A DNA stretch of 64,000 nt, from assembly GCA_050949045.1 (NCBI GenBank), contig JBMNEZ010000001.1, forward strand, positions 96,001-160,000. The letters are read 5' to 3'. Origin of the DNA: Candidatus Izemoplasmatales bacterium (GTDB taxonomy: Bacteria > Bacillota_I > Bacilli_A > Izemoplasmatales > Hujiaoplasmataceae). The position numbers were made by a program, and so were the translations under genes. A model generated the notes under the pieces. The model was not told the origin of the DNA. It saw nothing but the letters and a program-made list of their open reading frames with translations, and did no database searches. Below, one piece after another: positions 9,647-62,431 of this stretch (its first letter is position 1; each line of letters opens with the position of its first letter).

Positions 9647-9648
9647 AG

Positions 9649-12655: not shown

Positions 12656-15600
12656 ATGCGAAGAACAAAACGTGGATTACTTAGACATGCAGGCACAAGG
12701 ATTTTTTCTTTATTTCTGTGTTTTTCTCTTTTGCTTCTAGGAGCGGGGAGCGTATATGCGACAGTATACAATCACCATTTCTATGGCGAAGACTGGACAT
12801 GGAGTCCTTCTGCTAAAAGTGCTGAAGAAGCCAAGGCCAATGCAATTAAGGTTGCAGAGCAAATCGCTGCTGAAGGCCAGGTACTTTTAAAGAATGAGAA
12901 TAGTACCTTGCCTCTTAGTGGAGATGAATGGCTGACTGTTTTTTCTACTACCAGCACAAAAGATTTAGCTTCTTACATTTCCGGTATAGAGGCTGGAGGC
13001 TTTAAGGTACACAGTACGACCTCAACCGATGTAAGCAAGTACACTCCAAGCGATATGCGCGCACATAGTTCCAGCGATGTAGCTGTAATTATTATGAGTG
13101 GAGAAGCTGAATCAAAAGGCGATTTCTTTAGTCCTGGTCCTTTTGGTGGCGGTGGTGGAGAAGGCGGATCTACAGCTAGCCTTGTCGAACCGGAAGACAA
13201 TAAGGATGCTTATGGCAATACTTACAAGCTTCCTAGCGGAAAAGATTTCGTACACAGGTTTTCTCCGATGAAAAAGGTAGGAGAAGAGACAGTAGCATAC
13301 AAACACAGTTTACAACTTCAAAACAAAGATGAAGAAATTATTAAGTATGCTAAAGACAATTTTAAAACAGTCATTGTTTTGCTTCAAAACGATATACCTA
13401 CCGAAATCGGCTCGCTTAAAATTGATCCTGGCATTGATGCCATTCTACTCGCGGGGCGTTTAGGAAATTACGGACATGAGCAAATAGGCTATGTTTTAAA
13501 CGGCTCAGTTAACCCCTCTGGGAGAACGGTAGACCTTTGGGCATGGGATCATTCAGGGCGTCCTTCTTGGTTCAACGACGGGAATACTAACAATATTTTC
13601 AGAAATGCAACTCAAGAAAGCGAATCAGATGTTTCGAATATGGGAATCACATCAGCGTTCCGTGTTGGTGAAGGATCTATATATTATGAGAGATCAGAGG
13701 CGTATTCTAAAGCCGATGATGAAACATATCCATATTATAAGAGAAGACCGCACGCTACAGGTGAAATTACTCCTCACGTATTTACTGTGCAGTATGAAGA
13801 GGATATTTACACTGGATACCGTTACTATGAAACCGCCGCAACAGAGGTAGCTTTGGGCAATTATGCCGCAGCTGGTTACGGCATCGACGGCGAAGCTTTT
13901 TATTACGATTCGGTTATCTATCCTTTCGGTTACGGGCTCAGTTATACCTCATTTGAATGGGAAGTAGTGAGTTCAGACCTTAGCGAATGGGCCAGAGTTT
14001 TGGCTTCTGAAAGCTCAAGCATCAATTTCCAAACCGGCGAAATAACCGTTAAGGTAAAAGTTACCAACGTTGGTTTGGTACCGGGCAAGGACGTAGTGGA
14101 AATTTACGGACACGCACCATATTACAAGAATGGTGTTTCTAAAGCGGAACACGTACTTGTAGGCTTTGAAAAAACTGGAATAATCCAGCCTGGTAAATCG
14201 CAGGTAGTTACTGTTTCTGTAAACGTTCAAGATCTTGCTTCGTATGATTACCTTGATGCTAACGGAAACGGCAACACAGGCTATGAGCTTGATAAAGTCG
14301 CAGATGCCGACTCAAAAGGCAACCCCTTACATGATAGCACTGGTAAATACCAGCTCCGTCTCATGAAAAACAGCCATGAATATGGCAATGACGATGCGGC
14401 TGAAATGACGATTGATCTTGCTAGCCCTTCGAGAGATTATTTCCTTAAACTCGATGACTTCACAGGAAACAGCGTCGACAATTTGTTCTCCGGAAAAGAC
14501 ATAAACAACACACTCGGATATGATCCAGGGACAGGTAAAACGCTGGTTGAAGAAGGCAAAATGACGATCCTAACCCGTGCAGATTTTGCAGGAACTTGGC
14601 CTCAGGCTGCGGGAACCACCACAGGTCCTAGCGGCGAAGAAAAAGGCTGGGATCTCGTAAGAAGCGACGAATATTACACTATGATTTCTGAGTTCGCTGA
14701 TTACAACGGAGAAAATTGGCAAGAGTTTTATAAGATAGTAAATAACGTAGAAACAATTCCTGCTGAAATAACAAATGAAGATAAAGCCGGTTTTGCTTGG
14801 TCTATTGACGCAGCAGAATTTGCAACGCTTACAACGGCTAAATACACACCTGAAGGCGGCACAGAACAAACAATTAATTGGGTACAAAGAGACCCAGCTG
14901 CCAATCTTTCTGAACTTCAAGAAAGCGATGATTGGCTGTGGTTTGCTGACATGATCAAGTATGAGTACAATGACGGTGGTATTGGCACATACATGTGGAC
15001 CAAGTTTATGAACCAGCTGACCTACAACGAGATGGTAGAATGGGTTACTAACGGTGGCAGAAGGACATCGGCCATTGATTCAGTAGGTAAGAGAGCGGCG
15101 GAATATGTGGACTCCAGTATAAGAATGGGAGGCACAAACCAAATTAGTTATGGTTATAATTCTGTTTCTAGCCGCACTTGGAATAAGGAACTTGCAAAGA
15201 AGAGAGGCATATGCATCGGCGAAACTGCTCTCTTTGATGGAAAAGAGGCATGGTATGCACCGGCATGCGACTTACACCGTAGCCCGTTTGCAGGTCGTAA
15301 CGACGAGTATTGGTCAGAAGACGGTTTCTTCTCAGGCTGGATGGCAGGCAGCGTGCTTGCGGGCACTCAGTCCACAGGAGTAATTTGTACCATCAAGCAC
15401 TTTGCTCTCAATGAAAGCGAGAACATGAGACAAAGCTTACATACATACCTTTCTGAACAAACTTTCCGTGAGCTGTATCTACCCGCATTCAAAATTTGTA
15501 TGCAAGAATGCGGTGCACAAGGTGTAATGACTGCATATAACTGTATTGGTGATATGCACGCATCTTCAGCTTACAATTTCCTTGTTGGTATGACCGAAAA

Positions 15601-16867
15601 AGAATGGGGCTTCGACGGCTTCAATATTTGTGACGCTGCCGATCCTTGGAAAGACTTCTACACTCATGACATGAGTCTCCGCTCAGGCGGGACGATGTTC
15701 CTATGCGATTGGAGAGCATCCAAAGAATATACTCCCGGTGATAAAGGGAACCTTGTTCAACTTTATCCTACTGGTGTATATAACGTAACTGATAACAAAG
15801 TCTATGTTAGAGAAAACGGTCAAGTAAAAGATTCTCCTGTAACGGTAGAATCATACACCAGCTGGTATTGGCTGCGATATCAAGTAATGCGTTCACTGTT
15901 TGTGGAAGCAAACAGCAATATCGCCAATAACGGCCTTAAACTTGACAACTTCAAGGATGCTACCTTGGCTGATGGAGCACAAGCGGTGGCCTATACAGCT
16001 AATATTGGGCTTGAAGGCGCAGATGCTTCTATTAGTACTTACACAGTAACTAGCGGCGCATTACCCAAAGGCTTATCAATTTCTAACGCCGGTGCGGTTA
16101 CAGGCACTCCCACCGAAGCAGGCGAGTTCACATTTAAGGTTAAATTCGTAAACGGATACTGGATTACAAAAGAAGCTACTTTCAATTTAACTGTGACCCC
16201 TTGCTTTACGATTGGTAGCGAAACTGAATTGAACGCTTTAGAAGTTGGCGCTGCTTTTGAAGGCTATATTGAATCAGAAGTAATTAAGATTGATGATACC
16301 TATACTTCCATAACATATGAACTTGCTCAAGGAAGCGCACTGCCCGAAGGGCTTACACTTTCAAAAACCGACGGCTTGATTTCGGGTACGCCTACGGTTC
16401 CGGGAACTTATAGTGTTACGTTTAATATAACACCTAAAAAAGCATCATCCGGCGGTGGTGGCGGCGGCTTCCCATGGGGTCCACGTCCAGGCAGCAGTTC
16501 AACTGTTTACAATTACACGGTCACTTTCGTTGTAACCGGAGATCCAATTGTTGAACCTAGCGGTCCCTTCTTCAGAATTGTTGATGGATTTGTTGAATAT
16601 TCTGAAGATAACGAAACTTGGGTACAAGTAATTGAGGTATCCGAACTGCAAGGCGACAAGGGCGACAAGGGCGACAAGGGCGATAAAGGTGACAAGGGCG
16701 ACAAGGGCGATGCTGGCGCAGCTGGTCCTGCCGGTCCTGCCGGTCCTGCTGGAAAAGATGCAGAACCGGTAAGCGGATGCGGAAGCTCGCTAACCGGAAC
16801 CGGAATCCTCGTTACCGGATTGCTGTCTCTCGGAGTACTATTCTTAAAACGCAGGAAGTCTGATTAA
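12656..16867 (+). CDS. Large surface GH3 glycosidase (permuted domains) with two putative Ig domains, collagen-like linker and Gly-Cys/TM/basic tail
   Basis: Signal peptide; [75 protein letters not shown]; LPxGL..GTPT Ig motifs; GDK/GPA repeats; [15 protein letters not shown]. Confidence 0.9.
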   Translation: MRRTKRGLLRHAGTRIFSLFLCFSLLLLGAGSVYATVYNHHFYGEDWTWSPSAKSAEEAKANAIKVAEQIAAEGQVLLKNENSTLPLSGDEWLTVFSTTSTKDLASYISGIEAGGFKVHSTTSTDVSKYTPSDMRAHSSSDVAVIIMSGEAESKGDFFSPGPFGGGGGEGGSTASLVEPEDNKDAYGNTYKLPSGKDFVHRFSPMKKVGEETVAYKHSLQLQNKDEEIIKYAKDNFKTVIVLLQNDIPTEIGSLKIDPGIDAILLAGRLGNYGHEQIGYVLNGSVNPSGRTVDLWAWDHSGRPSWFNDGNTNNIFRNATQESESDVSNMGITSAFRVGEGSIYYERSEAYSKADDETYPYYKRRPHATGEITPHVFTVQYEEDIYTGYRYYETAATEVALGNYAAAGYGIDGEAFYYDSVIYPFGYGLSYTSFEWEVVSSDLSEWARVLASESSSINFQTGEITVKVKVTNVGLVPGKDVVEIYGHAPYYKNGVSKAEHVLVGFEKTGIIQPGKSQVVTVSVNVQDLASYDYLDANGNGNTGYELDKVADADSKGNPLHDSTGKYQLRLMKNSHEYGNDDAAEMTIDLASPSRDYFLKLDDFTGNSVDNLFSGKDINNTLGYDPGTGKTLVEEGKMTILTRADFAGTWPQAAGTTTGPSGEEKGWDLVRSDEYYTMISEFADYNGENWQEFYKIVNNVETIPAEITNEDKAGFAWSIDAAEFATLTTAKYTPEGGTEQTINWVQRDPAANLSELQESDDWLWFADMIKYEYNDGGIGTYMWTKFMNQLTYNEMVEWVTNGGRRTSAIDSVGKRAAEYVDSSIRMGGTNQISYGYNSVSSRTWNKELAKKRGICIGETALFDGKEAWYAPACDLHRSPFAGRNDEYWSEDGFFSGWMAGSVLAGTQSTGVICTIKHFALNESENMRQSLHTYLSEQTFRELYLPAFKICMQECGAQGVMTAYNCIGDMHASSAYNFLVGMTEKEWGFDGFNICDAADPWKDFYTHDMSLRSGGTMFLCDWRASKEYTPGDKGNLVQLYPTGVYNVTDNKVYVRENGQVKDSPVTVESYTSWYWLRYQVMRSLFVEANSNIANNGLKLDNFKDATLADGAQAVAYTANIGLEGADASISTYTVTSGALPKGLSISNAGAVTGTPTEAGEFTFKVKFVNGYWITKEATFNLTVTPCFTIGSETELNALEVGAAFEGYIESEVIKIDDTYTSITYELAQGSALPEGLTLSKTDGLISGTPTVPGTYSVTFNITPKKASSGGGGGGFPWGPRPGSSSTVYNYTVTFVVTGDPIVEPSGPFFRIVDGFVEYSEDNETWVQVIEVSELQGDKGDKGDKGDKGDKGDKGDAGAAGPAGPAGPAGKDAEPVSGCGSSLTGTGILVTGLLSLGVLFLKRRKSD

Positions 16868-17007
16868 CAAAAGAAACAAGCAATAAAGATTTTAAGACAA
16901 TAGAAAGAATCAATTAAGCAGGCGGATATGTTGGGATTATTCTTTAATGCGCGGTAAAATATCGTTGTGATAAAGAATATCCCAACATTATCCGTTATTG
17001 TCAAATA
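16682..17007 (+). repeat. ~326-bp inverted repeat copy A (GH3 tail + downstream stem-loop)
   Basis: Reverse complement of 34530-34856; two substitutions and one 1-bp indel seen by eye. Confidence 0.93.
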
Positions 17008-17094
17008 TTTGGAGTAAGTGTAAATATTGTTTGAAAAAGCATTATTATGTTTGTATGCGACTATGTAAACGACAAAATAAATGTGAGGAAATCT

Positions 17095-18525
17095 ATGAAA
17101 CAAAAAAAGATGGCAACAACGCTCTTATCGTTTTTTCTGCTTTTTGTATTAGCATTGACCGTAGCTTGCACGAATTCTACGACGACGCAGCTTAGCATTA
17201 CCTTTGATTTGAACTATGAAAATGCTACTAGTCTGACGCAAAAAGTTTCTTACGGCGAATATCCCACAAAACCTGCTGATCCTCAAAGAGCAAAGTACGC
17301 CTTTTTAGGCTGGTACAGTGATAAAGATTTCCAACAGGAAGCAGATTTTGGCCAAGCCATTTCTACCAATGTAACATTTTATGCAAAATGGGAACTAAGA
17401 CAAGTAACAGTTATTTTTGATTATAACTATCCCGGCTCGGCTTCATCTAACCTTGATATAGACATTGGCGGTAATGCATCACGTCCGAAATCGCCCACGA
17501 GAGAAAACTACTTGTTTATCGGCTGGTTTACCGATGCCGAAGGAAATGATGAATTCGATTTTGATATTACCCTAATGGAAGACATTACTGTTTATGCAAA
17601 GTGGGAAGAGGTAAATAATTCTGTTCACGAGCATGTCGATGCGGATAATGACAATATATGCGATGAATGCGGGGAACCGATTTCTGCTCATGAGCATATT
17701 GATGCGAATAATGACAATATATGTGATGAATGCGGTAAAAAAATTGACGATAACATTATAACGTTAACATATTTTTGGAATTATGAAGGTGCTCCTGATA
17801 ATGGAGTGTATGACACAATTTATATGACCAAGAATAGAAAACCAAGCAAAATTAAAGCCAATCGGGATGGTTATTTTTTCTACGATTGGTTTACCGACCA
17901 AGAACTTACAAACAGGTTTGACATAAATGAAAGAGTAAATGAGGATATGACTTTGTATGCGTGCTGGTATTCAATTTACACCTTTGAAGCAGAGTATACA
18001 TATCTTGAAGAAATGGAAGGTCTAGGATATTCGGGTGATGCGTCTGGACTTAATGTGATAGAGCCTGATCATTACTCAATGAATGCCAGCAACGGCTATT
18101 ATGTTGGCTGGCTGTTTAATCCCGGACTTACAATAGAGTTCAACTTGACTTGCTCCGAGAGTACGGATACTGCTCATCTGGCGCTGAGGCTCAGCGCAGA
18201 GTTTCAGGATCTGATACTTAATTGGAAAGAGTTTACCGTTCAGGTGAATGGCACTAATTTGGTGTATGACGATATTTATTTTCTCAATGTTCCTGATGGT
18301 TCGGCAGATACAAAACGTCCATTTACTACGCACATCGTATCTAATAGAGTAACCCTTAACGAAGGTGAAAATGTTATTAAACTGATAGTAAGCAACGAAA
18401 ACAAGGGCGAGGGCGGCACAATGAGGGCTTCTGCGCCTATGGTAGACTGCATAATAATTTATTCTGACGCTCTAGTTGAATGGGGCGAAGGTTATCCCTT
18501 GACCGATAATCTCGATGGCAGATAA
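17095..18525 (+). CDS. Lipoprotein with InlB B-repeat-like domains, Cys/His/Asp repeats and C-terminal CBM6/35-like domain
   Basis: Lipobox LTVAC; three F.GWY/F...T.YA.W repeats; HEHxDAxNDNICDECG x2; YTFEAEY..SNGYYV..GENVIKL..GGT..APMVDCI. Confidence 0.75.
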   Translation: MKQKKMATTLLSFFLLFVLALTVACTNSTTTQLSITFDLNYENATSLTQKVSYGEYPTKPADPQRAKYAFLGWYSDKDFQQEADFGQAISTNVTFYAKWELRQVTVIFDYNYPGSASSNLDIDIGGNASRPKSPTRENYLFIGWFTDAEGNDEFDFDITLMEDITVYAKWEEVNNSVHEHVDADNDNICDECGEPISAHEHIDANNDNICDECGKKIDDNIITLTYFWNYEGAPDNGVYDTIYMTKNRKPSKIKANRDGYFFYDWFTDQELTNRFDINERVNEDMTLYACWYSIYTFEAEYTYLEEMEGLGYSGDASGLNVIEPDHYSMNASNGYYVGWLFNPGLTIEFNLTCSESTDTAHLALRLSAEFQDLILNWKEFTVQVNGTNLVYDDIYFLNVPDGSADTKRPFTTHIVSNRVTLNEGENVIKLIVSNENKGEGGTMRASAPMVDCIIIYSDALVEWGEGYPLTDNLDGR

Positions 18526-18535
18526 TTGAGGAGAA

Positions 18536-21659: not shown

Positions 21660-21694
21660 ATGATGATAAAGCCCTCCCGATTAAGGAGGGCTTT
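21660..21694 (+). repeat. 35-bp direct repeat copy 2
   Basis: atgatgataaagccctcccgattaaggagggcttt. Confidence 0.85.
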
Positions 21695-23445: not shown

Positions 23446-23465
23446 TATACTGCAATTGATTAACA

Positions 23466-23500
23466 AAATCCGAGTGAAGTGTTTTCATTCGGATTTTTTT
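23466..23500. terminator. Terminator between convergent genes
   Basis: aaaatccgagtgaa...ttcattcggatttttt. Confidence 0.7.
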
Positions 23501-31805: not shown

Positions 31806-31806
31806 A

Positions 31807-34517: not shown

Positions 34518-34529
34518 TGCATACTCCTT

Positions 34530-34856
34530 TATTTGACAATTAACGGATAATGTTGGGATATTCTTTATCACAACGATATTTTACCGCGCATTAAAGAATA
34601 ATCCCAACATATCCGCCTGCTTAATTGATTCTTTCTATTGTCTTAAAATCTTTATTGCTTGTTTCTTTTGTTAATCAGACTTCCTGCGTTTTAAGAATAG
34701 TACTCCGAGAGACAGCAATCCGGTAACGAGGATTCCGGTTCCGGTTAGCGAGCTTCCGCATCCGCTTATCGGTTCTGCATCTTTTCCAGCAGGACCGGCA
34801 GGACCGGCAGGACCAGCTGCACCAGCATCGCCCTTGTCGCCCTTGTCACCTTTATC
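34530..34856 (-). repeat. ~326-bp inverted repeat copy B
   Basis: Reverse complement of 16682-17007. Confidence 0.93.
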
Positions 34857-42156: not shown

Positions 42157-42172
42157 CTTAATATTTCAGTTC

Positions 42173-43789: not shown

Positions 43790-43801
43790 GTTAACCTCCG
43801 T

Positions 43802-48669: not shown

Positions 48670-48756
48670 TTTCTAGACCCCCTTACTGCTTACTGAGATG
48701 ATGGGCATGATGAGGCAATGAATTAATAGAACGTTTTCATCGCATCGGTGTTGTCT

Positions 48757-52291: not shown

Positions 52292-55200
52292 ATGAAAAGA
52301 TCGACGTTTTCAAAAATCGAAATGAGTACAAGACGGATTGCTCTTGTCGCAGTTATGCTTTTCACTGCGCTTTGTTTTGTATTCGTTTTGATGTCATCAT
52401 CTGCAGCGCAAGCCGAAGGCTTGGGTGGTACAGGCTATACAACAGCTTATTCCAGCCAAGAAGAAGTGTATGACGCTGCCAATCTGTTCAATGAACGGAT
52501 GGTTGAGGAAGGAATTGTTCTTCTAAAGAATGTTGACAATGCCCTTCCACTTGCTAAGGGCTCGATGATCAACGTGCTTGGCAAAAACTCTGCCAACATT
52601 GCGATCGGAGGAACCGGTTCAAGTACCGGATCAGGATCCGTAGAAGCCAGAAAGGCAATCAGCTTGTACCAAAGTTTGGCAAATGCGGAATTTGTACTCA
52701 ACCCTGCACTCGTAGCATTCTACGAGAACAACACATTATCCGGAACCGGAAGACGAGCTCCGAATATGGGTGCAAATCTTACGGGCTTGAGCACCGGAGA
52801 AACTCCTCCGGAAATGTATTCTGCGGAATTAAAAGCTACCTATGCTGATTATGATGATGCATCAATCGTCGTAATTACTCGTATTGGTGGTGAAGGTTAT
52901 GATCTCCCAACAACGATGCTAGCTAGTGGGCTACCAATGGCTGGATCTTTAGAAGGGGATCATTACTTAGAGCTTGACTTATATGAAAAAGCGATATTTG
53001 CTTCTTTGGAAGAGGATCCAAGCGTTAGCAAAGTTATCGTAATCGTCAATGCCAGCCAGCAAATGGAACTTGGTTTCTTGAATGATTCCGTTAATTACTC
53101 CAAAGTCAAAGCAGCGATTTGGGTCGGTGGACCTGGACAATCAGGCGTTGCCTCTATCGGAAGAATATTGAATGGCGACGTTAATCCGTCCGGACGTCTC
53201 GTTGATACTTTTGCCGCAGACTTCTCCAAAGACCCTGTGTGGTACAACTTTGGCAATTCTGGTGGCAGGCATACGAATGGCACTCTCGACGAAGAAGGCA
53301 ATTTCACCACTCCTAATGGATATCCCCGTTTCGTAAACTATGAAGAGGGAATCTACCTAGGCTATCGTTATTGGGAAACTGCCGGCTACGATAAAAACGA
53401 TAACTGGGCTTGGTATGACCAAAATGTTGTATTCCCGCTTGGCTATGGTTTGAGCTATACCTCGTTTAGTTGGGAACTCGTTGGCGAGCCAACCATTCCT
53501 ACCACTTTCACTGCGACCGCTGAAGTTGAAGTAACCGTAAAAGTTACCAATACAGGCTCTGTTGCAGGAAAAGATGTTGTTCAACTGTATTACACAGCTC
53601 CTTACTACAATGGTGGCATTGAAAAATCGTATGTTAGATTGGCCGACTTTGCCAAAACGCCACTGCTTGAACCAGACGCCTCTGCTAATGTTACAATGAA
53701 AGTTTCACTTAAGGACCTTGCATCATATGACTATAACGATGCCAACGGCAACGACTATAAGGGCTATGAACTTGAAGCTGGGAATTACGTTTTTAGAGTA
53801 TTGAAAAACGCCAATGCCCGTTCGGTTAACGGCGTTGCCGACTTCACGATGACTGTTCCTGAAGATAATGAAAAACCGGCAACTGCAGGCAAAACCGGAG
53901 TAATGTTTACACACGATGAAAAGACCGGCGCCTTAATCAAAAACCTGTTCGATGATGTATCGCAAAAAGCCATTAACGGTACACTTGAAGACAAAGCGAC
54001 CGAGGCTGTTAGAGACAGTGGCGGCTTCATGAATGTCATGACACGCGCCACAGAGAGTGGCGGTCTTGCCGGTACTATCCCAACAGACTATCCGAGCAAC
54101 GAAAAACGAACTGTTTCGGCGGCGTTCAGAAATTCTTATGCGACACCGTCCAATACAGCAACTCGTGACGCTGCCGACTTGGTCAGTCCATGGTACAAGG
54201 AAGAGTTTCCAACACAAGCCGCCAACGATCAGGGCGAAGTGACAGTCTTCTTAAAAGATTTGATTGGAAAAGATTTCGATGATCCTCTTTGGGACGCTTT
54301 CCTCAATCAGATGACATATTACGAAATGGCATATCTTATCGGTCACGGAGCTTTCCATACATACCCAATCGAAAGATTAGGAAAACCATGGTCTGTCGAA
54401 ATTGACGGACCGGTTGGATTGGTTCCAAGACAGGTAAACGGACCATTGATGGATATCAATAATCATGTATCATGCGTATATGCGACACAACCCGTAGTCG
54501 CAGCAACCTGGAACAAGGAATTGGTCAAAGAATATGGCCAAATGACTGGAGAAGAATCAATTTGGGGAAATACCAACTATGCATATTCAGGTATTTATGG
54601 CCCCGGATTGAACATTCACCGTTCACCGTTCTCAGGACGTAACTTCGAGTATTACAGTGAAGATGGTGTTTTATCAGGAAAAATGGCCGGAGCTTACTGC
54701 TTAGGAGCGTACGAGAAAGGCTTGTACACAATGATGAAACACTATGTGCTCAATGACCAAGAAACGAACCGAAACGGTATCCAAACTTGGGCAGATGAGC
54801 AGACAATGCGTGAAATCTACTTCTTGCCTTTTGAAAAAGCTATTAAAGATGGAAATTCAAGAGGAGCGATGGCTGCTTATAATAGTATTGGCAAGACCTG
54901 GACCGGTGCAAGCTATGCCTTGATGACCGACTTGACTCGTAATGAGTGGGGATTCGAGGGAATGATTATCACTGACTGGGGTTCATATTCAGCTACGACA
55001 AACAACTGGATGATTCGTGCCGGAACCGATTTGTTGCTTGGCGGAAGTAGGGAAGGCACTCTGATTTTTGAAGGAGCCGATCTCACGCCCACACATGCTT
55101 GGGCGCTCAGAAGAGCAACCAAAGCCATAATGTTCACCGTTGCCAACAGCAACGCAATGATACCGAGACTACAGTATGCTGCCGGAGCAGCTCCCAGTCC

Positions 55201-57490
55201 TTTCCGAACCGGGATTGAGTATTCGATGGATGCTTCCGGAGTCTCCGGAAACTATGATTTCGGCGAATTTGAAGTAACGTATTCAGCAGATGAGCGTTTG
55301 CCTGAAGGATTGGAAATCGATCCTGAGACTGGCCTCATAACTGGTATCATTGCGGCAAGCGGAGCCTCACAGTCCTACACGTTTACTGTCACCGGCAGTG
55401 TTCCTGCGGGTACAGCGCTTACCGATGCCGTTTCTCGAGAATTCACCATTAATCAGGCAAGCATCACAGAAATCCCCGCCTTGGCTAATGGCAGGGTCGG
55501 GGTACCATATTTCTCCGATGCAATTCAAATATCATTAAACTTGGAGATTGACCCAAGTGAAATCACATATCAGTTGGATCCGGGTCTAAGGCAAGGTTGG
55601 ACATGGATAAGACGTGGTTCAGCAGCGCTTCCTCAAGGACTAGTGATCAATAATGACGGAACGATTACCGGTACACCGACTCAGGCAATTACTAGAACGG
55701 TTACTTTCCTAGTTTCTGCGCCCGGTTTCGTAGACACATTGATTACTCGCACTATAACTATCTTGCCAGCAATTCCGGTGATCACATTTGGCGATGCAAT
55801 ATTACCGGCGGGAGAAGTGGGCTCTCAATACGAAGCACAACTCGTTGCCAGTGGCGCGGAGGGCATCACCTTTGCTTCAGAAAATCTCCCTGCAGGATTA
55901 ACGCTTGCCGCTAACGGCTTGATCTCTGGAACTCCAACAGTCGTAGGAACTTATCTCTTTGAAGTAACCGCTTCAGCGGAAGGCGCAACATCAACTGTTG
56001 CTTCAATCGCTCTTAACGTAGCCGAGGAAGCTGAAATAATCCTTCCTGCCATCGTATTCAACGACAGGAAGCTTGATGCTGGAAAAGTCGGTGTTGCATA
56101 CAGCGCGACTCTTACTGCTAGCGGAGCCGATGGCATCACCTTTGCTTCAGAAAATCTCCCTGCAGGGTTAACGCTTGCCGCTAACGGCTCGATCTCTGGC
56201 ACTCCAACTGAAGCCGGAACTTATCTCTTTAAAGTAATTGCTTCAGCGGAAGGAGCAACATCAACTGTTGCTTCAATCGTTCTTAGCGTAGCCGAGGAAG
56301 ATGAAGTAATCCTTCCTGTCATCGTATTCAGCGACAGGAAGCTCGACTCTGGAAAAGTCGGTGTTGCATACAGCGCGACTCTCACTGCTAGCGGAGCCAC
56401 AGGCATCACCTTTGCTTCAGAAAATCTCCCTGCAGGGTTAACGCTCGCCGCTAACGGAAAACTTTCTGGTACTCCGACTCAAGCTGGAACATACCTTATT
56501 ACAGTGACTGCTTCTGCAACTGGTGCGCAATCGGCAACTGCTTCAATCGTTCTTAGCGTAGCCGAGGAAGATGAAGTAATCCTTCCTATCATCGTATTCA
56601 GCGACAGGAAGCTCGACGCTGGAAAAGTCGGTGTTGCATACAGCGCGACTCTCACTGCTAGCGGAGCCACAGGCATCACCTTTGCTTCAGAAAATCTACC
56701 TGCAGGATTAACGCTCGCCGCTAACGGAAAACTTTCTGGTACTCCGACTCAAGCTGGAATATACCTTATTACAGTGACTGCTTCTGCAACGGGCGCGCAA
56801 TCGACAACTGCTTCAATCGTTCTTAGCGTAGCCGAGGAAGATGAAGTAATCCTTCCTGTCATCGTATTCAACGACAGGAAGCTCGATGCTGGAAAAGTCG
56901 GTGTTGCATACAACGCGACTCTCACTGCTAGTGGAGCCACAGGCATCACCTTTGCTTCAGAAAATCTCCCTGCAGGATTAACGCTCGCCGCTAACGGAAA
57001 ACTTTCTGGTACTCCGACTCAAGCTGGAACATACCTTATTACAGTGACTGCTTCTGCAACGGGCGCGCAATCGACAACTGCTTCAATCGTGCTTAGTGTT
57101 TCCCCCGCTGCTGCAACCGAGGCACCGGCAATTTCATTCAATAGTGCATTGTTGGCTTCTGGAACTGTAGGAACAGCATACAGCGCGACTCTCACTGCTA
57201 GCGGAGCCGAAGGCATCACCTTTGCCTCAAGCGACCTACCTGCCGGCTTGACTCTCAACGAAGACGGATCTATCTCTGGCACTCCGACTCAAGCTGGAAC
57301 ATACTTGTTCACAGTTACGGCCTCTGCTACTGGAGCACAATCGGCTACAGCATCAATTGCGATTCACATTGCATCAGTAGCCGCTCCGATAACTGGTTGC
57401 GCATCAGCTTTGACCGTCTCGACGATCATCATGACATTGTTGACGTCAATGGTAGCTGGAGTCTTCATCTTTATCAGGAAACGTCAATAA
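52292..57490 (+). CDS. Large surface GH3 glycosidase with ~8 putative Ig domains and Gly-Cys/TM/basic tail
   Basis: RIGGEGYDL, YEEGIYLGYRYWET, IDGPVG, HRSPFSGRNFEYYSED, EWGFEGMIITD; LPAGLTL..G.LSGTPT repeats; TGCASAL-TM-RKRQ. Confidence 0.92.
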   Translation: MKRSTFSKIEMSTRRIALVAVMLFTALCFVFVLMSSSAAQAEGLGGTGYTTAYSSQEEVYDAANLFNERMVEEGIVLLKNVDNALPLAKGSMINVLGKNSANIAIGGTGSSTGSGSVEARKAISLYQSLANAEFVLNPALVAFYENNTLSGTGRRAPNMGANLTGLSTGETPPEMYSAELKATYADYDDASIVVITRIGGEGYDLPTTMLASGLPMAGSLEGDHYLELDLYEKAIFASLEEDPSVSKVIVIVNASQQMELGFLNDSVNYSKVKAAIWVGGPGQSGVASIGRILNGDVNPSGRLVDTFAADFSKDPVWYNFGNSGGRHTNGTLDEEGNFTTPNGYPRFVNYEEGIYLGYRYWETAGYDKNDNWAWYDQNVVFPLGYGLSYTSFSWELVGEPTIPTTFTATAEVEVTVKVTNTGSVAGKDVVQLYYTAPYYNGGIEKSYVRLADFAKTPLLEPDASANVTMKVSLKDLASYDYNDANGNDYKGYELEAGNYVFRVLKNANARSVNGVADFTMTVPEDNEKPATAGKTGVMFTHDEKTGALIKNLFDDVSQKAINGTLEDKATEAVRDSGGFMNVMTRATESGGLAGTIPTDYPSNEKRTVSAAFRNSYATPSNTATRDAADLVSPWYKEEFPTQAANDQGEVTVFLKDLIGKDFDDPLWDAFLNQMTYYEMAYLIGHGAFHTYPIERLGKPWSVEIDGPVGLVPRQVNGPLMDINNHVSCVYATQPVVAATWNKELVKEYGQMTGEESIWGNTNYAYSGIYGPGLNIHRSPFSGRNFEYYSEDGVLSGKMAGAYCLGAYEKGLYTMMKHYVLNDQETNRNGIQTWADEQTMREIYFLPFEKAIKDGNSRGAMAAYNSIGKTWTGASYALMTDLTRNEWGFEGMIITDWGSYSATTNNWMIRAGTDLLLGGSREGTLIFEGADLTPTHAWALRRATKAIMFTVANSNAMIPRLQYAAGAAPSPFRTGIEYSMDASGVSGNYDFGEFEVTYSADERLPEGLEIDPETGLITGIIAASGASQSYTFTVTGSVPAGTALTDAVSREFTINQASITEIPALANGRVGVPYFSDAIQISLNLEIDPSEITYQLDPGLRQGWTWIRRGSAALPQGLVINNDGTITGTPTQAITRTVTFLVSAPGFVDTLITRTITILPAIPVITFGDAILPAGEVGSQYEAQLVASGAEGITFASENLPAGLTLAANGLISGTPTVVGTYLFEVTASAEGATSTVASIALNVAEEAEIILPAIVFNDRKLDAGKVGVAYSATLTASGADGITFASENLPAGLTLAANGSISGTPTEAGTYLFKVIASAEGATSTVASIVLSVAEEDEVILPVIVFSDRKLDSGKVGVAYSATLTASGATGITFASENLPAGLTLAANGKLSGTPTQAGTYLITVTASATGAQSATASIVLSVAEEDEVILPIIVFSDRKLDAGKVGVAYSATLTASGATGITFASENLPAGLTLAANGKLSGTPTQAGIYLITVTASATGAQSTTASIVLSVAEEDEVILPVIVFNDRKLDAGKVGVAYNATLTASGATGITFASENLPAGLTLAANGKLSGTPTQAGTYLITVTASATGAQSTTASIVLSVSPAAATEAPAISFNSALLASGTVGTAYSATLTASGAEGITFASSDLPAGLTLNEDGSISGTPTQAGTYLFTVTASATGAQSATASIAIHIASVAAPITGCASALTVSTIIMTLLTSMVAGVFIFIRKRQ
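55850..57350 (+). repeat. Tandem 270-bp (90-aa) Ig-domain repeats
   Basis: ttcaatcgttcttagcgtagccgaggaag recurs at 56272, 56542, 56812; central copies near-identical. Confidence 0.92.
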
Positions 57491-57531
57491 TTGCATCAAA
57501 CTCATTTACACAGATAGATTAACTTGATATA

Positions 57532-57588
57532 ATTCGTTTGGAACGCTATAGGCAGATTACTGTCTATAGCGTTTCCGACGATTATTTT
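57532..57588 (+). terminator. Strong intergenic stem-loop between module 3 GH3 and lipoprotein
   Basis: ggaacgctataggcag-atta-ctgtctatagcgtttcc followed by T-rich tract. Confidence 0.7.
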
Positions 57589-57630
57589 TACTATCTATCT
57601 TAGCTGTAATCACAATTTTGGAGGAAATCC

Positions 57631-58797
57631 ATGTTAAAAAAACTACTTATTCTACTGACTATCTTCGTATCAACAACAATACTAATAGCGTGTGTTGATA
57701 CAACGACAACTGTGGGTATGGTTAAAACAACAACGACTGTTTCTGGTTCCACAAGTACTTCTGTTACCAATACTCCCAAAACAACTACTTCCGCGATCTC
57801 CCCTTCCACAACAACCACTTCCATCAGCACCGCCCCTCCCGGGACAACCACTTCCATCAGCACCGCCCCTCCCGGGACAACCATTCCCATTAGTACCACT
57901 CTTCCCGTAACAACCACTGACGGCACGACTTCGATCAATACCGGACCGGCGACATTGAATTATCAAGGCGCCGCATTGGCCAATGGTACAGTTGGGATAC
58001 AATACTCTGCTAACATCAATACCGCAACCGGCGCTAGTGGAATCACATACTCTTTGAAGTCGGGAAGTTTGCTTCCAGACGGATTGTCGCTTGCAGGAGG
58101 TATTATCACAGGGATTCCGACTGTCGCAGGGACAAAGCAATTTGTAATTGTTGCCGACGCGAGCAACGCGGTTGCCCCAGTAGAAGCGACTTTCACGATT
58201 GTAATCGAAGAAGAAGAGCCTACTGGTCCAAAAACATACATTTTTGAAGCCGAATATGTTGATTTCACCGATGTTTGGGGTTCAGGGTGGTCAAATACCC
58301 AAACCGAATGGGGGATGGTTGCCGGCGATGGGGTCACAACACCGGTAAGCAATGGGATGTATGTCGCCTACTTTGTTCCCCCGGCGGGATCTTTAAAATT
58401 CCCCTTCACTTCTGATGCAGCGGGGACAGGTAAACTAACCTTCTCTATGGTCTCGGAGTATGTTAAAAACTGGTTTGGCGAATTTGATGCGATTCATCTG
58501 AATCCCGAGATCATGAAACTCAAGATTAATGGCACCGAGATAAGCTACGAGGTATTTGTATTGGGTGTTAACGGACCTACAGAAGCCTTCAAAGAATACG
58601 TCTTTTTGGAAGAATTTGCCATTCGTCAAGGTGAAAACATGATTGAGATTATCATGGAATCATCCAACGATTATTTCCCCGGAAGAGTTGGGGGAGGCCC
58701 AAACGTTGACTACATGAAGATCGAATCTGAATTGAACTTGGTTATGAAAAAAACTTGTTCGACAGTCGATGAAGTCATCTTACGACGAGGTTATTAA
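57631..58797 (+). CDS. Lipoprotein with Ser/Thr/Pro linker, one Ig domain and C-terminal CBM6/35-like domain
   Basis: Lipobox LIAC; TTTSISTAPPG repeats; LPDGLSL..GIPT; YIFEAEY..SNGMYV..GENMIEI..GGPNVDYM. Confidence 0.78.
   Translation: MLKKLLILLTIFVSTTILIACVDTTTTVGMVKTTTTVSGSTSTSVTNTPKTTTSAISPSTTTTSISTAPPGTTTSISTAPPGTTIPISTTLPVTTTDGTTSINTGPATLNYQGAALANGTVGIQYSANINTATGASGITYSLKSGSLLPDGLSLAGGIITGIPTVAGTKQFVIVADASNAVAPVEATFTIVIEEEEPTGPKTYIFEAEYVDFTDVWGSGWSNTQTEWGMVAGDGVTTPVSNGMYVAYFVPPAGSLKFPFTSDAAGTGKLTFSMVSEYVKNWFGEFDAIHLNPEIMKLKINGTEISYEVFVLGVNGPTEAFKEYVFLEEFAIRQGENMIEIIMESSNDYFPGRVGGGPNVDYMKIESELNLVMKKTCSTVDEVILRRGY
57811..57883 (+). repeat. 33-bp tandem repeat (about 2.2 copies)
   Basis: acaaccacttccatcagcaccgcccctcccggg x2 + acaacca. 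Confidence 0.9.
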
Positions 58798-58808
58798 TAA
58801 TTATCCAA

Positions 58809-58848
58809 AATACTACACAACGCATTTTTTGTTGTGTAGTATTGATTT
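58809..58848 (+). terminator. Terminator after lipoprotein
   Basis: aatactacacaac...gttgtgtagtatt hairpin. Confidence 0.65.
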
Positions 58849-59473
58849 TGGCATTGAAAAGGGCAAAAAATAGCATTTGTTTTGTAATGTCTTTACATAA
58901 TTAATAACTTGATTGAAAGTACTTGTTTTCTAATAGTCTATCTTTCAAACCAATCAGCATTTTGCCTGATAGGTTTCAACACATCATATAAACTAGCAAT
59001 CGATAATTAATTAAATAATTATCTTGTTGCCGTTATTTTGTGAGGATTTCTAAGCGTATCCAATTCATATGCTTGGGTGAGATGGCAAATATTGTACTGT
59101 AATTTGACAAGAGCCTTTGATTGCACGAATATTTTTCTATTCAGAATTGCTTTGCGACTTAAAAATACTTGGAATCAATGGTTTTCTTTATGCAATTTAG
59201 TTGTTTTTGATCCGAACTTGTTTTTAAGGCTGAGCATCATAGTATAAATCTGTCAGCCATTCAGCGGCTATGTCTTGTGCTCGGCCTGGATAACCGTAAT
59301 TGAAGTTTCATATTCAAAATCATGTAGGTATTAATCAGCATAATAACTTTTATGATTTGAATTATAATTCAAACTAGGACAGTCGATTTTTCTTTATTCA
59401 GTATTAAATTTAGGTTAAATATATAATATAAATTTGACAATATTTTCCAATGATTTACAGAGGGGGAAAAAAG

Positions 59474-62431
59474 ATGAAGATAATATGGAAAAACTTAAGC
59501 ACAAGAATATGGCTAATCATATCAGCAATACTTTCTTTCTTAATGCTCATAACCATAATAGCTGTGCAAATACCGTTTTTGAGTCAAACGATGAATACAT
59601 TGTTTGGCGGAGAAAGAAGAATCATTACCAGCCCTTCCGGCGAGAGTTATATGTATTATGAATCTGATTACTTTTCGAAAGCGTTGACCTTGCAAGAGGC
59701 CAATAAACTTAACGAACAAATCGTCGGAGAAGGCGTAGTGCTTCTAAAAAATGATAATAACGCGCTTCCAATTACCGGCTCTAAAGATATTAGTGTTTTT
59801 GGCAAGAATTCAGTCAATCTAGTTTATGGCGGATCGGGATCCGGTGAAAAAAGCGATATGCTCGATACGGATTTATATAGCAGTTTAGAAGACGCGGGAT
59901 TTACGACAAATCCTATTTTAAAAGCGTTTTATAAAGATAACTCCAAGTCTGGTAACGGGCGACCAGCCAATCCTTCAATCGGCGCTCAGTTAACCGGATT
60001 TCCAACTGGAGAAACACCAATTTCAAGTTATACACAGGATGTCAGGAACAGTTATAACCAATATGATGACGCCGCGATTGTCGTTTTTTCGAGAATCGGC
60101 GGTGAGGGCTATGATCTTCCGAGAACGATGCAAGTAAGCTTTACTGATCCTTCTGCAGTAGAAGGGGCTTCCAGCGCCCAGGATCACTATCTTCAGCTAG
60201 ACGCCAATGAAAAGGCGCTTCTTGAAGAAGTAAAAGCAAACTTCAGCAAAGTAATCGTTTTGATCAACAGCGCTACGACGATGGAACTGGGCGATCTTCA
60301 AGACGATGATGAAATCGACAGTATTCTTTGGATTGCCACAACCGGAGGAACGGGAATCAATGCAGTAGGTGATGTGTTGAGCGGCAAGATCAACCCTTCC
60401 GGTCGTACTGTCGCGACATATGCAAGAAACTTTAGAAACGATCCGACTTGGCATAACTTCGCATATAACGGTGTTAAAAACGGCAACCGTTACGTGGTTG
60501 GCGAAATTAATAGACCGTTCTATTTCGTTGATTATGAGGAAGGCATCTATGTCGGGTACCGTTATTATGAAACCAGAGGATTTGAAGAGATAAAGGCCAA
60601 TCCAGCTAGCACGTGGTACGAAGACAATGTCGTTTATCCTTTTGGTTTCGGATTGAGTTATACATCGTTTAAATGGGAAATAAGCTCCACATCATACCCT
60701 GATGAGTCCGTCTTGACTAAAAACGGAGTTATTGAAGTGACAGTGAAAGTTAAAAACACAGGCACTGTAAAAGGCAAAGAAGTTGTCCAATTATATTACA
60801 CGGCGCCATATACGAATGGCGGCATCGAAAAAGCCCATGTCGTGTTGGGGGCATTTGCCAAGACCAATGTGCTAAATCCTAACCAAAGCCAAGAACTAAA
60901 ATTGAGCCTAAAAGTCATGGATATGGCATCTTATGATTATAATGATGCCAATAACAACGGATTTAAAGGTTATGAACTTGAAGGCGGGAACTATGAGATC
61001 AAAATTATGAAAAACGCTCATGAACTGGTTGATTCTCTGACATACTCGGTTCCTGCAGGTGGGTTCAAAGTCGACTCTGATACCGAGTATGGAGTTCAGC
61101 CTGAAAATCGTTTTGATGATGTCAGTTCCAAGATTAATAGTGTTAATGTCGAGCAAACCGGCGGAACGATGACACTTATGTCAAGGGCGAATTTCGCTGG
61201 CACGATGCCTTCGACACCGACTCTCGCCGATCGTACAGTTAGTTCCGGATTCATTGACAGTCTAGCCTATCCCCAACAACCATGGACTGTGGATCAGGGC
61301 AAGCCGTATTACACAGCTAATGCTCCGATTCAGGCAAGTTCGGAACTATCGGAAAACGAAGTCAATTTAATGCTTTACGACATGATCGGCGTCGCTTACG
61401 ATGATCCTTCATGGGACACTTTCCTCAACCAATTGACGGTCGGGCAGATGGCTACTCTGATTGGCAGCGGCAACTTCCACACCGAGCCGCTTGTCAACCT
61501 CGGAAAACCGCGGACAACGGATCCCGACGGACCTGTCGGGTTCACCAATTTCATGGAAATCGGCGAAGCCACCGTCTATGACACCTGTTTTTATGCCAGT
61601 CCCTCGATTGTCGCGGCCACTTGGAACGTCGAACTCGCTTTTGAACAAGGCAAGATGGTCGGCAACGAAGGCATTTGGGGGAATGACCGGGGCGATCAGG
61701 CTCCTTATTCGGGCTGGTACGCTCCCGCTGTCAATATCCACCGGACTCCCTTCTCGGGTAGGAACTGGGAATATTACAGTGAAGATGGATTCTTGTCGGG
61801 TAAAATGGCAGCCAATGTGATTTTGGGAGCGAAGGAAAAAGGGGTCTACACCTTTATCAAACACTTTGCCGTCAACGATCAGGAGACGAACCGCGATTCG
61901 AACGGCTTGTTGACATGGCTTGACGAGCAGACGATGCGCGAGATCTATTTGAAACCGTTCGAGATGGCTGTCAAGGAAGGCAAGACGACCGCGATTATGT
62001 CATCATTTAACAGACTCGGCAAGGTTTGGGCAGGCGGAAGCTACGAATTGCTGACGGAAGTGTTGCGGAACGAATGGGGATTTAAAGGCACGGTTATCAC
62101 CGACTACAACGTTTATGCCCATATGCCCGCAGACCAGATGATTCGTGCCGGTGGCGATTTGAACCTGATCCAAGACAAGCGTCCGACGACATCAAACGAA
62201 GCTTTGACCAGCACTCAGATATCATTGATGCGCCAAGCTTCAAAGAACATCCTGTTCACCGTAGTCAACAGCAACGCGATGAACGGCTTGGGGGCCAACG
62301 CCACCATCAGATACATTTTGCCGCGTTGGAAAGTTGCGATGATCATCATCGAAAGTTCAATTGCCGGGTTGATTATAATCTCCGGGGCCATCTTGATTAC
62401 TAGTGTTTACAAAAAGAAACCGATTGTTTAA
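59474..62431 (+). CDS. Membrane-anchored GH3 beta-glycosidase (module 3 partner; TM at both ends)
   Basis: [60 protein letters not shown]. Confidence 0.93.
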   Translation: MKIIWKNLSTRIWLIISAILSFLMLITIIAVQIPFLSQTMNTLFGGERRIITSPSGESYMYYESDYFSKALTLQEANKLNEQIVGEGVVLLKNDNNALPITGSKDISVFGKNSVNLVYGGSGSGEKSDMLDTDLYSSLEDAGFTTNPILKAFYKDNSKSGNGRPANPSIGAQLTGFPTGETPISSYTQDVRNSYNQYDDAAIVVFSRIGGEGYDLPRTMQVSFTDPSAVEGASSAQDHYLQLDANEKALLEEVKANFSKVIVLINSATTMELGDLQDDDEIDSILWIATTGGTGINAVGDVLSGKINPSGRTVATYARNFRNDPTWHNFAYNGVKNGNRYVVGEINRPFYFVDYEEGIYVGYRYYETRGFEEIKANPASTWYEDNVVYPFGFGLSYTSFKWEISSTSYPDESVLTKNGVIEVTVKVKNTGTVKGKEVVQLYYTAPYTNGGIEKAHVVLGAFAKTNVLNPNQSQELKLSLKVMDMASYDYNDANNNGFKGYELEGGNYEIKIMKNAHELVDSLTYSVPAGGFKVDSDTEYGVQPENRFDDVSSKINSVNVEQTGGTMTLMSRANFAGTMPSTPTLADRTVSSGFIDSLAYPQQPWTVDQGKPYYTANAPIQASSELSENEVNLMLYDMIGVAYDDPSWDTFLNQLTVGQMATLIGSGNFHTEPLVNLGKPRTTDPDGPVGFTNFMEIGEATVYDTCFYASPSIVAATWNVELAFEQGKMVGNEGIWGNDRGDQAPYSGWYAPAVNIHRTPFSGRNWEYYSEDGFLSGKMAANVILGAKEKGVYTFIKHFAVNDQETNRDSNGLLTWLDEQTMREIYLKPFEMAVKEGKTTAIMSSFNRLGKVWAGGSYELLTEVLRNEWGFKGTVITDYNVYAHMPADQMIRAGGDLNLIQDKRPTTSNEALTSTQISLMRQASKNILFTVVNSNAMNGLGANATIRYILPRWKVAMIIIESSIAGLIIISGAILITSVYKKKPIV

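Follow-up and report, generated by a model that had tools for sequence, protein, structure and literature searches.

The polysaccharide utilization loci (PULs) of Gram-positive bacteria and the Sus systems of the Bacteroidota, taken in their customary definitions, are the systems with which the genes of this report are compared, and the three-component GtrA/GtrB/GtrC glycosylation systems are a further point of reference. The nearest described enzymes are permuted members of glycoside hydrolase family 3 (GH3): GlyA1, a broad beta-glycosidase, defined the permuted subfamily and has a C-terminal domain predicted to resemble carbohydrate-binding modules (CBMs) of families CBM6 and CBM35 (PMC5104943), and BrGH3A prefers laminaribiose and has no signal peptide (PMC11233000). 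Four Cys-type C-terminal signals, MYXO-, JDVT-, Synerg- and CGP-CTERM, have been reported together with CPBP sortases (bioRxiv 10.1101/2023.06.07.544157; PMC11980579), and the words "Firmicutes", "Bacillota" and "monoderm" are absent from the main text of the first of these reports. Permuted GH3s, CBM35/CBM6 folds and Cys-type sorting are already known. We describe here a gene module, present three times in a 64,000-nucleotide stretch of the genome of Candidatus Izemoplasmatales bacterium (assembly GCA_050949045.1, contig JBMNEZ010000001.1; the window, G000:C1:96001-160000), that encodes three co-inherited surface proteins with a GH3 catalytic set, a CBM-fold domain, interchangeable anchors and a conserved hairpin between the first gene and the other two. 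The letter A denotes the stalked GH3, B the lipoprotein, C the GH3 with two transmembrane (TM) segments and D a 4-TM gene; L numbers refer to module loci and G numbers to genomes, with G000 the genome of the window, a single contig of 1,356,138 bases that is 98.3% complete.

The preliminary description of this DNA, which listed three modules of three genes each, was correct about the A-B-C order and its coordinates, which match the open reading frames in every copy. All three modules are real, but G000 holds five in total, the other two lying at G000:509189-518029 and G000:1342450-1351901 (module 5). The three-gene composition applies to modules 1 and 3, whereas module 2 has a fourth gene for a 178-amino acid (aa) protein, D2, between B and C, and the spacing is not uniform in module 3, where C3 starts 653 nt past B3 behind a second hairpin. 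Ten of the 12 GH3 genes detected in G000 are located within modules.

Gene order is conserved elsewhere and the B domain is enriched beside GH3 pairs, as the same description had anticipated. A scan of species genomes gave 95 loci, of which 80 were kept, mostly from Clostridia with some from Bacilli and Mollicutes; three kept loci labelled Bacteroidales may be mis-binned, and L018 and L019, which duplicate L040 and L039, were left out of the trio-measure, transporter and long-locus counts. Free-standing B genes in the 80 loci have a permuted GH3 on both sides in 63 of 79 cases and on at least one side in 78 of 79, the lone exception (L045) standing at a contig end. For 61 shorter metagenome loci a GH3 was seen on both sides in 32, and the six without a GH3 neighbour are all on contigs of less than 2.8 kb. 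Within the family the B domain occurs in 8 of 71 genomes, G000 included; six of the seven relatives have the order A-B-C (A being cut by the contig end in three), while in the remaining one the contig breaks off within B. When the phylum was sampled evenly (399/400 genomes), the B domain was present in 10 of 399 genomes, and exactly these 10, five of which are not in the C alignment, match the C profile at more than 1000 bits, with two candidates scored per genome; 27 other genomes in the sample gave weaker permuted-GH3 matches of at most 854 bits. Because each trio in the window has an orthologous trio in another family or class (A1-B1-C1 in the Clostridia loci L044/L057, A2-B2-D2-C2 in L029 and A3-B3-C3 in L035/L022), the module is inherited as a unit.

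The proteins A1, A2 (39281-34671) and A3 are 1403, 1536 and 1732 aa long and share the domain order GH3_C sandwich, Fn3-like domain, GH3_N barrel, He_PIG immunoglobulin (Ig) repeats with or without collagen, and a tail composed of a Gly-Cys (GC) motif, a TM segment and a basic cluster. The initial picture of a permuted GH3 of 1400-1730 aa on an Ig/collagen stalk with a Gly-Cys tail fits these three proteins, but neither collagen nor tail is obligatory. The A protein of the module at 509189-518029 has an N-terminal lipobox and collagen and no Gly-Cys tail, and the anchoring of A is interchangeable between a Cys-type tail, a plain TM segment, a lipobox and an N-terminal signal only. All six (6/6) window GH3s have their Pfam domains in the permuted, GlyA1-type order, with the sandwich N-terminal, fibronectin type III (FnIII) in the middle and the barrel C-terminal. 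They resemble GlyA1 (5K6L), the beta-glucosidase of Paenibacillus barengoltzii (5WUG) and BrGH3A in this order, in fold and in catalytic residues; those are presented in the accessible text of their reports as single enzymes, whereas here two membrane-tethered GH3 classes flank a separate CBM-fold lipoprotein.

As had been noticed at the outset, the catalytic domains are diverged between the copies in G000 and the architecture has been kept: barrel-core identities are 30-38% for A and 32-57% for C. The GH3 phylogeny by module position that had been proposed as a check (FastTree, 170 barrel cores) separates a tight C clade (support 0.99, median barrel identity 52.5%) from Cd, a distinct clade of D-associated GH3s (support 1.0), and leaves the A class diverse and non-monophyletic (median identity 36.1%), with A3 near the C clade. 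The nucleophile Asp is present in 168 of the 170 GH3s and, of the -1 subsite residues (D, R, K, H), K and H in 169; the acid/base Glu was found in 64/64 C rows, in 20 of 21 Cd rows and in 68 of the A rows, this region not being aligned in part of one Lachnospiraceae-type A clade. Judged from these alignments, the catalytic sites of both GH3 classes look intact. The nucleophile is followed by F or Y in C, by M in Cd and, in the majority of A rows, by G, I, M or A; the same position is Trp in Thermotoga Bgl3B. Since this residue varies most in A, substrate specificity is suggested to vary mainly in A, and the idea that the copies were diversified for different substrates suits the A proteins, but C is comparatively constant.

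The C proteins (C1, C2 and C3, of 982, 1032 and 993 aa) each have one N-terminal and one C-terminal TM segment, in keeping with the original outline of gene 3 as a double-TM GH3 of about 1000 aa. A model of the core of one C homolog (pLDDT 84.9) matches 5WUG and GlyA1 5K6L-O best, with TM-scores of 0.73-0.74 over about 900 columns at 26-28% identity. SN243 was considered as the closest enzyme and rejected, being a NagZ-like GH3 of another type with a His/Asp dyad. D stands between B and C in module 2 and, as a 143-aa homolog, in module 5, and at four loci a Cd-clade GH3 carries a D homolog as an N-terminal fusion. The D family, whose members are free-standing (for example L002:10498-10929) or fused to Cd-clade GH3s, has a conserved Y-I-x-N-V...I-D-G loop, and an Atlas cluster of 3050 members resembles it. 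A relationship between D and GtrA was ruled out, as no similarity was found.

The B proteins of the window are lipoproteins with a variable stalk and a common C-terminal domain, just as they were first described; more widely, B can be a lipoprotein or a secreted protein. Each of B1-B3 has a lipobox-like Cys, but the stalks differ: B1 and B2 contain InlB-B repeats (3 and 6 Pfam stretches, respectively), and B3 has a Thr/Ser linker and one He_PIG-like repeat. The shared domain (here the B domain) is made up of the last ~180 residues and, among the window B proteins, is 26-34% identical to that of B1. Its model (pLDDT 78.7) has its best Foldseek and VIA matches among CBM35/CBM6 structures (against a CBM35, VIA Z 14.0 and a root-mean-square deviation of 2.1 over 124 residues), and the domain is thereby predicted to have the CBM35/CBM6 beta-jelly-roll fold. 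It is like the CBM35/CBM6 modules 3ZM8, 2W46 and 2VZP in this fold (Z 12-14), but unlike them has longer loops and a conserved C-terminal tail and, with few exceptions, forms the end of a surface protein with a stalk: in 167 of 171 homologs it stops no more than 10 residues short of the C-terminus (a lipobox was recognized by pattern in 145 of the 171). No CBM_6 or CBM_35 Pfam match was obtained for any of 20 B-domain members at E 0.1, and a search of PDB sequences with the B profile found no relative, so that a relationship to a solved sequence, the GlyA1 C-terminal domain included, was discarded. The domain constitutes an unnamed family with 918 representatives at 50% identity; in the searches for it, the matches followed were those that covered the B domain itself rather than the InlB repeats. 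Its conserved motifs, an E-A-E start and a late P-x-x-D, resemble what we take to be the calcium site of the CBM35/CBM6 families.

Over 70 trios, the similarity of B tracks that of A (rho 0.52) more than that of C (rho 0.35), with swaps in both directions. Two further loci (L089:2611-6702 and L094:5810-10537) encode GH3-Ig-TM-TM-B fusions in which the B domain is at the C-terminus. An apparent matching of A and B stalk lengths (rho 0.66, 69 trios) was abandoned when it fell to 0.22 (p 0.29) after kin were collapsed to 25 groups. Lipoprotein esterases with EstA Ig-like and hydrolase domains (L024:9647-11959 and L026:22-3420) bear one or two distant B-like domains, and the esterase of L026 heads a tandem of GH3 modules.

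The stem-loop that had been reported to follow gene 1 was found as a strong hairpin in 5/5 G000 modules (z -5.7 to -8.9, 0/200 shuffles each). Among 74 trios, the post-A hairpin is more stable than the best of five base shuffles by >3 kcal in 65, as counted in a 50-nt scan that missed two long window hairpins. Modules 1 and 2 also share the collagen end, the GC tail and the hairpin in the form of a 340-nt inverted repeat (Table 1), from which we infer a recent conversion; the barrel cores of A1 and A2, which this repeat joins, are only 32% identical. Recombination at these arms (16658-16997 / 34541-34880) would exchange the downstream partners B1-C1 and B2-D2-C2. In the contigs the two copies of the repeat are collapsed into one, and a single joint between opposite strands (run X7) falls in the collagen repeats; the assembled pairing of modules 1 and 2 agrees with the orthologous trios elsewhere. 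A 35-nt hairpin is repeated at 91% identity after the tRNA-Lys gene (9649-9683) and after C1 (21660-21694). Scans for promoters and terminators across the window found it to be no richer in either than shuffled sequence. Part of module 1 is present in six RNA runs, and in one of them a contig (16724-21659) covers B1-C1 and ends at the hairpin after C1, which hints that module 1 is transcribed; in the same run module 2 is patchy and 23004-26987 is without cover, and three DNA runs cover all 30 bins.

Eighty distinct tails of long or stalked GH3s include 53 with GC before the TM segment and 27 without (five of the latter being C or Cd), and because of these 27 the Gly-Cys tail is an optional anchor. 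G and C are invariant in 45 aligned tails, rows that were chosen for having GC. G000 has such tails on four A proteins only, and the one CPBP protease detected in this genome is encoded between modules 1 and 2; a GC tail is present at each of the seven loci that a CPBP gene adjoins. At E 1e-38 or better, the CPBP subfamily was found in 16 of 25 genomes with a module tail (three of the 16 in or close to the protease training set) versus 3 of 29 without. The three exceptions, protease-positive with tail-less modules, all carry GC tails elsewhere in the genome. The protease-negative genomes G244, G327 and G603 have no GC tails, and G204 has one weak match, a tail without Cys. An unselected sample gave tails in 13 of 18 genomes with a strong protease match versus 5 of 281 others, with G000 having trained both profiles and G150 and G196 the tail profile; the five strong-protease genomes outside the 13 have weaker-scoring tails (two) or none (three), and the five tail genomes outside the strong-protease group have weak near-full-length matches (three) or none (two).

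The subfamily conserves EExxxR, FxxxH and a late His. Other proteins of related genomes (L199-L213) finish in a GC tail as well, namely pullulanases, subtilases, endonuclease I proteins, a GHL10 protein and an unnamed protein of ~825 aa. The tripartite tail with its invariant Cys, its occurrence on unrelated surface proteins and the co-distributed CPBP protease are features held in common with the Cys-type CTERM systems; the differences are that the present hosts are monoderm Bacillota, that the tails fit the NCBIfam Cys-type models weakly (MYXO-CTERM models match 1 and 3 of the 45 tails, at E 0.03 and 0.43) and that the protease is outside the described families, the window protease scoring far below the cut-offs of MrtJ, MrtS and Mrt_core and under every myxosortase cut-off. 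Together the tail and the CPBP subfamily make up a candidate for a general sorting system of the Cys type in monoderms, in which the GC tails of the A proteins of G000 are probably lipidated and cut by the protease of Table 1.

Table 1. Features of the window discussed in the text (positions are those of the window)
Position	Strand	Feature	Score or Pfam match
10056..12181	+	Regulator pair upstream of module 1: multi-TM GHKL sensor kinase, LytTR response regulator	HATPase_c_5, LytTR, Response_reg
12656..16867	+	A1: permuted GH3 with signal peptide (D993 as nucleophile, E169 as probable acid/base), followed by 2 He_PIG, collagen and GC tail	
16658..16997		One 340-nt arm of the inverted repeat, with 96% complementarity to the arm at 34541-34880 (modules 1 and 2: collagen end, GC tail, hairpin)	
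16763..16864	+	Tail of A1: three-part C-terminal signal with Cys (GC motif, TM, basic cluster)	
16918..17001	+	Long hairpin in the A1-B1 gap, not among the terminator calls	z -7.0
17047..18525	+	B1 lipoprotein (likely start 17095): InlB-B repeats, C-terminal domain of predicted CBM35/CBM6 fold (residues 309-492)	
18536..21484	+	C1: double-TM permuted GH3, conserved C clade (D879, E215)	
21660..21694	+	Hairpin downstream of C1, at the end of the RNA-run contig	
24958..25761	+	CPBP (Rce1-like) intramembrane protease; candidate sortase for GC tail	
26013..28567	+	FGGY kinase and L-rhamnose isomerase (rhamnose catabolism)	
28731..31829	-	C2: double-TM permuted GH3, separate Cd clade (D914, E219)	
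31807..32343	-	D2: 178-aa 4-TM protein, no Pfam family	
32400..34571	-	B2 lipoprotein, start probably at 34517; stalk of six InlB-B repeats, B domain	
34671..39281	-	A2: permuted GH3 (D1152, E152), He_PIG, collagen, GC tail	
34674-34775	-	Tail of A2, of the same type as in A1	
39802..46357	-	GH2, GPH-type transporter of the major facilitator superfamily (MFS), GH78 alpha-L-rhamnosidase, upstream of A2	
46679..50046	-	LytTR/GHKL pair and class II aldolase	
52292..57490	+	A3: permuted GH3 near C clade (D895, E201), 8 He_PIG repeats, GC tail	
57383-57487	+	Tail of A3, of the same type as in A1	
57506..57609	+	Hairpin between A3 and B3, overlaps 11-of-12 promoter-like site 57505-57533	z -8.9
57631..58797	+	B3 lipoprotein: Thr/Ser linker, one He_PIG-like repeat, B domain	
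58804..58850	+	Hairpin downstream of B3, ahead of an AT-rich spacer of ~600 nt	
59450..62431	+	C3: double-TM permuted GH3, C clade (D885, E219)	
62872..63597	-	GtrA-like 4-TM protein; co-distributed with module	
63594..64000	-	Cytoplasmic standard-order GH3, 3' end only in window	

The neighbourhoods of the modules bear on their possible function. In the 80 loci the neighbours include LytTR (44), GHKL (35), D (16), cytoplasmic GH3 (14), GtrA-like (12), GT2 (8) and Glf (3) genes, and 55 of the 82 loci of at least 15 kb have a GHKL or LytTR regulator gene. A set of GtrA, GT2 and Glf genes is present in 29 of these 82 loci, a set of MBOAT and SGNH-like genes in 8, both in none and neither in 45; the GtrA-like and GT2 calls are Pfam matches, some of them under the cut-off. 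The GtrA-like gene occurs in 8 of 10 genomes with the B domain versus 2 of 34 without, plus one broken fragment, and Glf exceeds its cut-off in 5/5 B-positive genomes tested and adjoins the module in three. Past the window end, the cytoplasmic GH3 gene is followed by GHKL/LytTR genes, GT2, a GH3 copy of 98.7% identity, Lgt and UDP-galactopyranose mutase. This GH3, whose nearest model is an alpha-L-arabinopyranosidase (733 bits, below the cut-off of 1300), is duplicated beside the GtrA-like gene at L003:1594-4119(-) and 7673-10123(-), the copies being 98.7% identical in DNA over 2.5 kb and 6 kb apart.

Inside the modules there is no ABC transporter, as had been stated, but importers are not altogether distant: a GPH-type MFS transporter is two genes from A2, and ABC permease homologues are ~7 kb upstream of module 5. 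Sugar ABC permease homologues were found in 4 of the 80 loci and MFS transporters in 3, numbers that are floors, being based on two ABC and one MFS query proteins and 10-kb flanks. MFS and GH78 genes also flank the ortholog of module 2 in L029. No endo-acting enzyme recurs among the clustered neighbours, neither SusC nor SusD was seen among the window genes or the recurrent neighbours, and a GT-C-like gene was not noticed among the 32 most recurrent neighbour clusters, no search having been aimed at GT-C. G000 has no FabA/FabZ match and one weak, partial match to a ketoacyl synthase, because of which it probably scavenges lipid.

Several further observations on these surroundings can be recorded. 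After module 5 (L002:13971-18138, G000:C1:2-2455) there are genes for two SGNH-like leucine-rich repeat/InlB proteins, an MBOAT protein and an AMP-binding ligase, and the MBOAT gene runs across the contig ends, so that the G000 contig looks circular; SGNH-like genes recur in 14 of 159 loci and MBOAT in 5 of 159. The region upstream of module 5 (G000:C1:1333388-1341243), with ABC permeases, an epimerase-like and a GH130-like gene (named from sequence) and a GH5 lipoprotein, resembles a mannan locus. DegV-family fatty-acid-binding genes are in the flanks of 7 of 159 loci (L039, L053, L066, L084, L104, L119 and L131). Elsewhere in the window an Rnf-type electron transport operon, named from its sequences, occupies 2385-7870, and the tRNA-Lys gene (9571-9646) was the only match in an Rfam scan.

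The reading that we favour, with confidence and doubt about evenly balanced, is that the module might be a membrane-surface exo-glycosidase relay of monoderm Bacillota that strips sugars from glycoconjugates, and from amphipathic glycoconjugates in preference to polysaccharide. The preference is read from gene context: amphipathic substrates are favoured because of the double anchor of C, the integral-membrane D, the lipid-linked accessory genes and the small number of linked sugar importers, and the partners GtrA-like/GT2/Glf, cytoplasmic GH3 and MBOAT/acyl-CoA ligase point to lipid-linked glycoconjugates more than to polysaccharide. In such a relay, the GHKL/LytTR pair, AgrC/AgrA-like and with a membrane-embedded sensor, would induce the operon, and the hairpin after A might set an excess of A over B and C; selective RNA stabilization in clostridial cellulosome operons offers an analogy. 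A would take off outer, substrate-specific sugars, B would hold the substrate or dock it to a GH3, and C, held against the membrane by its two TM segments, would cleave an inner beta-linked sugar beside the bilayer. The favoured substrates would be glycosides that partition into membranes, such as glycolipids and steryl or saponin-type glycosides, and the trimmed product or aglycone might pass, without an ABC importer, to the GtrA-like protein, the cytoplasmic GH3 and GT2/Glf or, by an alternative route, to the MBOAT/acyl-CoA ligase set, with sugar use and lipid salvage as the outcome.

A number of points weigh against this relay on amphipathic substrates. Only 37 of the 82 long loci show either lipid-linked cassette, the GtrA-like gene is also found beside other permuted GH3s in 2 genomes without B, and module 2 is flanked by rhamnose catabolism, GH2, GH78 and MFS genes, much like a conventional catabolic locus. 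Many genomes of this small size are auxotrophic for fatty acids, so that auxotrophy permits the model but does not discriminate. Many of the sampled genomes are kin, and the counts therefore overstate independence; the RNA evidence consists of contigs of one run, in which part of A1 (15700-16363) is without cover. The permuted GH3s that have been characterized act on soluble glucobioses and aryl glycosides (GlyA1, PMC5104943; BrGH3A, PMC11233000).

A possible, if rather doubtful, alternative is that the module is a Sus-like device acting on soluble oligosaccharides of plants or on the ends of polysaccharides (beta-glucans, xylosides, arabino- and galactosides), with monosaccharides entering by unlinked transporters, for which four homologues of one ABC sugar permease elsewhere in G000 would be available. 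B has the fold of the polysaccharide-binding CBM35/CBM6 families, GH43, GH2, GH78 or MFS genes occur in some loci, the module-bearing genomes come from digesters, rumen and gut (G000 DNA itself occurs in anaerobic digesters), and the closest solved enzymes are 5WUG and 5K6L, the latter being GlyA1, a broad beta-glycosidase active on glucobioses and lichenan (PMC5104943). The likeness to Gram-positive PULs and Sus systems extends to surface CAZymes (carbohydrate-active enzymes), a binding-type lipoprotein and a linked regulator. Unlike in Gram-positive PULs, a linked sugar transporter is rare (though an MFS gene flanks module 2), and unlike in the Bacteroidota Sus systems, SusC/SusD were not seen and both enzymes are exo-type GH3s. 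The lack of a recurrent endo-acting CAZyme among the clustered neighbours speaks against this alternative, which also leaves unexplained the double-TM anchoring of C, the 4-TM D and its fusions, and the co-distribution of the GtrA-like gene. The first proposal of a conserved surface capture-and-hydrolysis complex is partly supported, by the conserved gene order, the CBM fold, the fusions and the GH3s with their apparently intact catalytic sites; the complex itself is putative, and the analogy with Sus is a loose one, with lipid-linked partners and no recurrent endo-acting enzyme.

An unlikely explanation is that the module belongs to a biosynthetic envelope system, in which the retaining GH3s would be transglycosylases that replace a GT-C enzyme: GT2 and Glf would load a sugar such as galactofuranose (Galf) on a lipid, the GtrA-like protein would flip it, C and A would build or remodel a glycolipid or lipoglycan, and the MBOAT set would acylate it. 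The two cassettes, never found together, resemble outward transfer systems, and GT2 and GtrA-like genes adjoin the module as in GtrABC systems, from which it differs in that a cytoplasmic GH3 is a fixed neighbour of the GtrA-like gene and that no recurrent GT-C-like neighbour came to notice, in the absence of a dedicated search. The C protein of L034, a locus that continues into GH3, GtrA-like, GT2 and Glf genes, is identical to P0187, which is named Haploplasma axanthum by NCBI, presumably the same species as Acholeplasma axanthum and one that is known in culture. Acholeplasma axanthum has been credited with galactofuranosyl diacylglycerol and with acyl, alpha-linked diglucosylcholesterol (PMC7666875, reference list and text); the latter, being alpha-linked, would not be a GH3 product. 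The patchy presence of the module in the family and in the phylum sample, the several divergent modules per genome, the sensor pairs and the horizontal spread of whole trios all suit foraging more than core envelope synthesis, and the long stalks would keep A far from lipid donors. It is very improbable that the module is no functional unit at all and consists of surface enzymes working independently under shared control, together with a general adhesin. In favour of this view, the order does vary (B-C-x-A in L070/L073, A-C-B in L099/L101), C3 is set apart from B3, which has a promoter-like site, and A can be swapped while B and C stay (L025 versus L028: A 40%, B 55%, C 72% identity); against it, the presence of B and of the C clade matches, B-GH3 fusions exist, orthologous trios occur across classes and the B domain keeps its place at the C-terminus.

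Extending the favoured relay, we tentatively propose, as a model that is itself somewhat unlikely to hold in all its parts, transporter-free foraging in lipid-scavenging monoderms. The module would trim glycolipids or amphipathic glycosides to a monoglycoside, and the GtrA-like protein would flip it inward with the lipid itself as the carrier; the cytoplasmic GH3 would free the sugar, and GT2/Glf or MBOAT would rebuild a glycolipid of the cell's own (for example Galf-diacylglycerol). A further sorting system of the Cys type, equipped with a CPBP sortase of its own, would anchor the surface enzymes; within the literature searched it would be the first from monoderms. That literature, with few subscription journals and no supplements, does not describe the module, the B and D families or the monoderm tail-protease pair; the supplements of bioRxiv 10.1101/2023.06.07.544157 could list further Cys-type signals.

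The module is a real, widespread and apparently undescribed variant of surface glycoside-foraging systems to which a candidate sorting system is attached. Among the uncultured Clostridia and mollicute-like Bacilli that live in gut, rumen and digesters it is common, and its GH3s are annotated as plain beta-glucosidases and the B domain and D are without a family name, and it provides a model for surface sugar cleavage in monoderms without a linked ABC importer. The pairing of GC tail and CPBP protease would bring sorting of the myxosortase type into monoderms, among them cells without a wall, in which a sortase would have no peptidoglycan to use. If the substrates are glycolipids or plant glycosides, the module would bear on the deglycosylation of dietary compounds in the gut and on lipid recycling, and these questions should be experimentally accessible in Haploplasma axanthum, which encodes a member and is known in culture.

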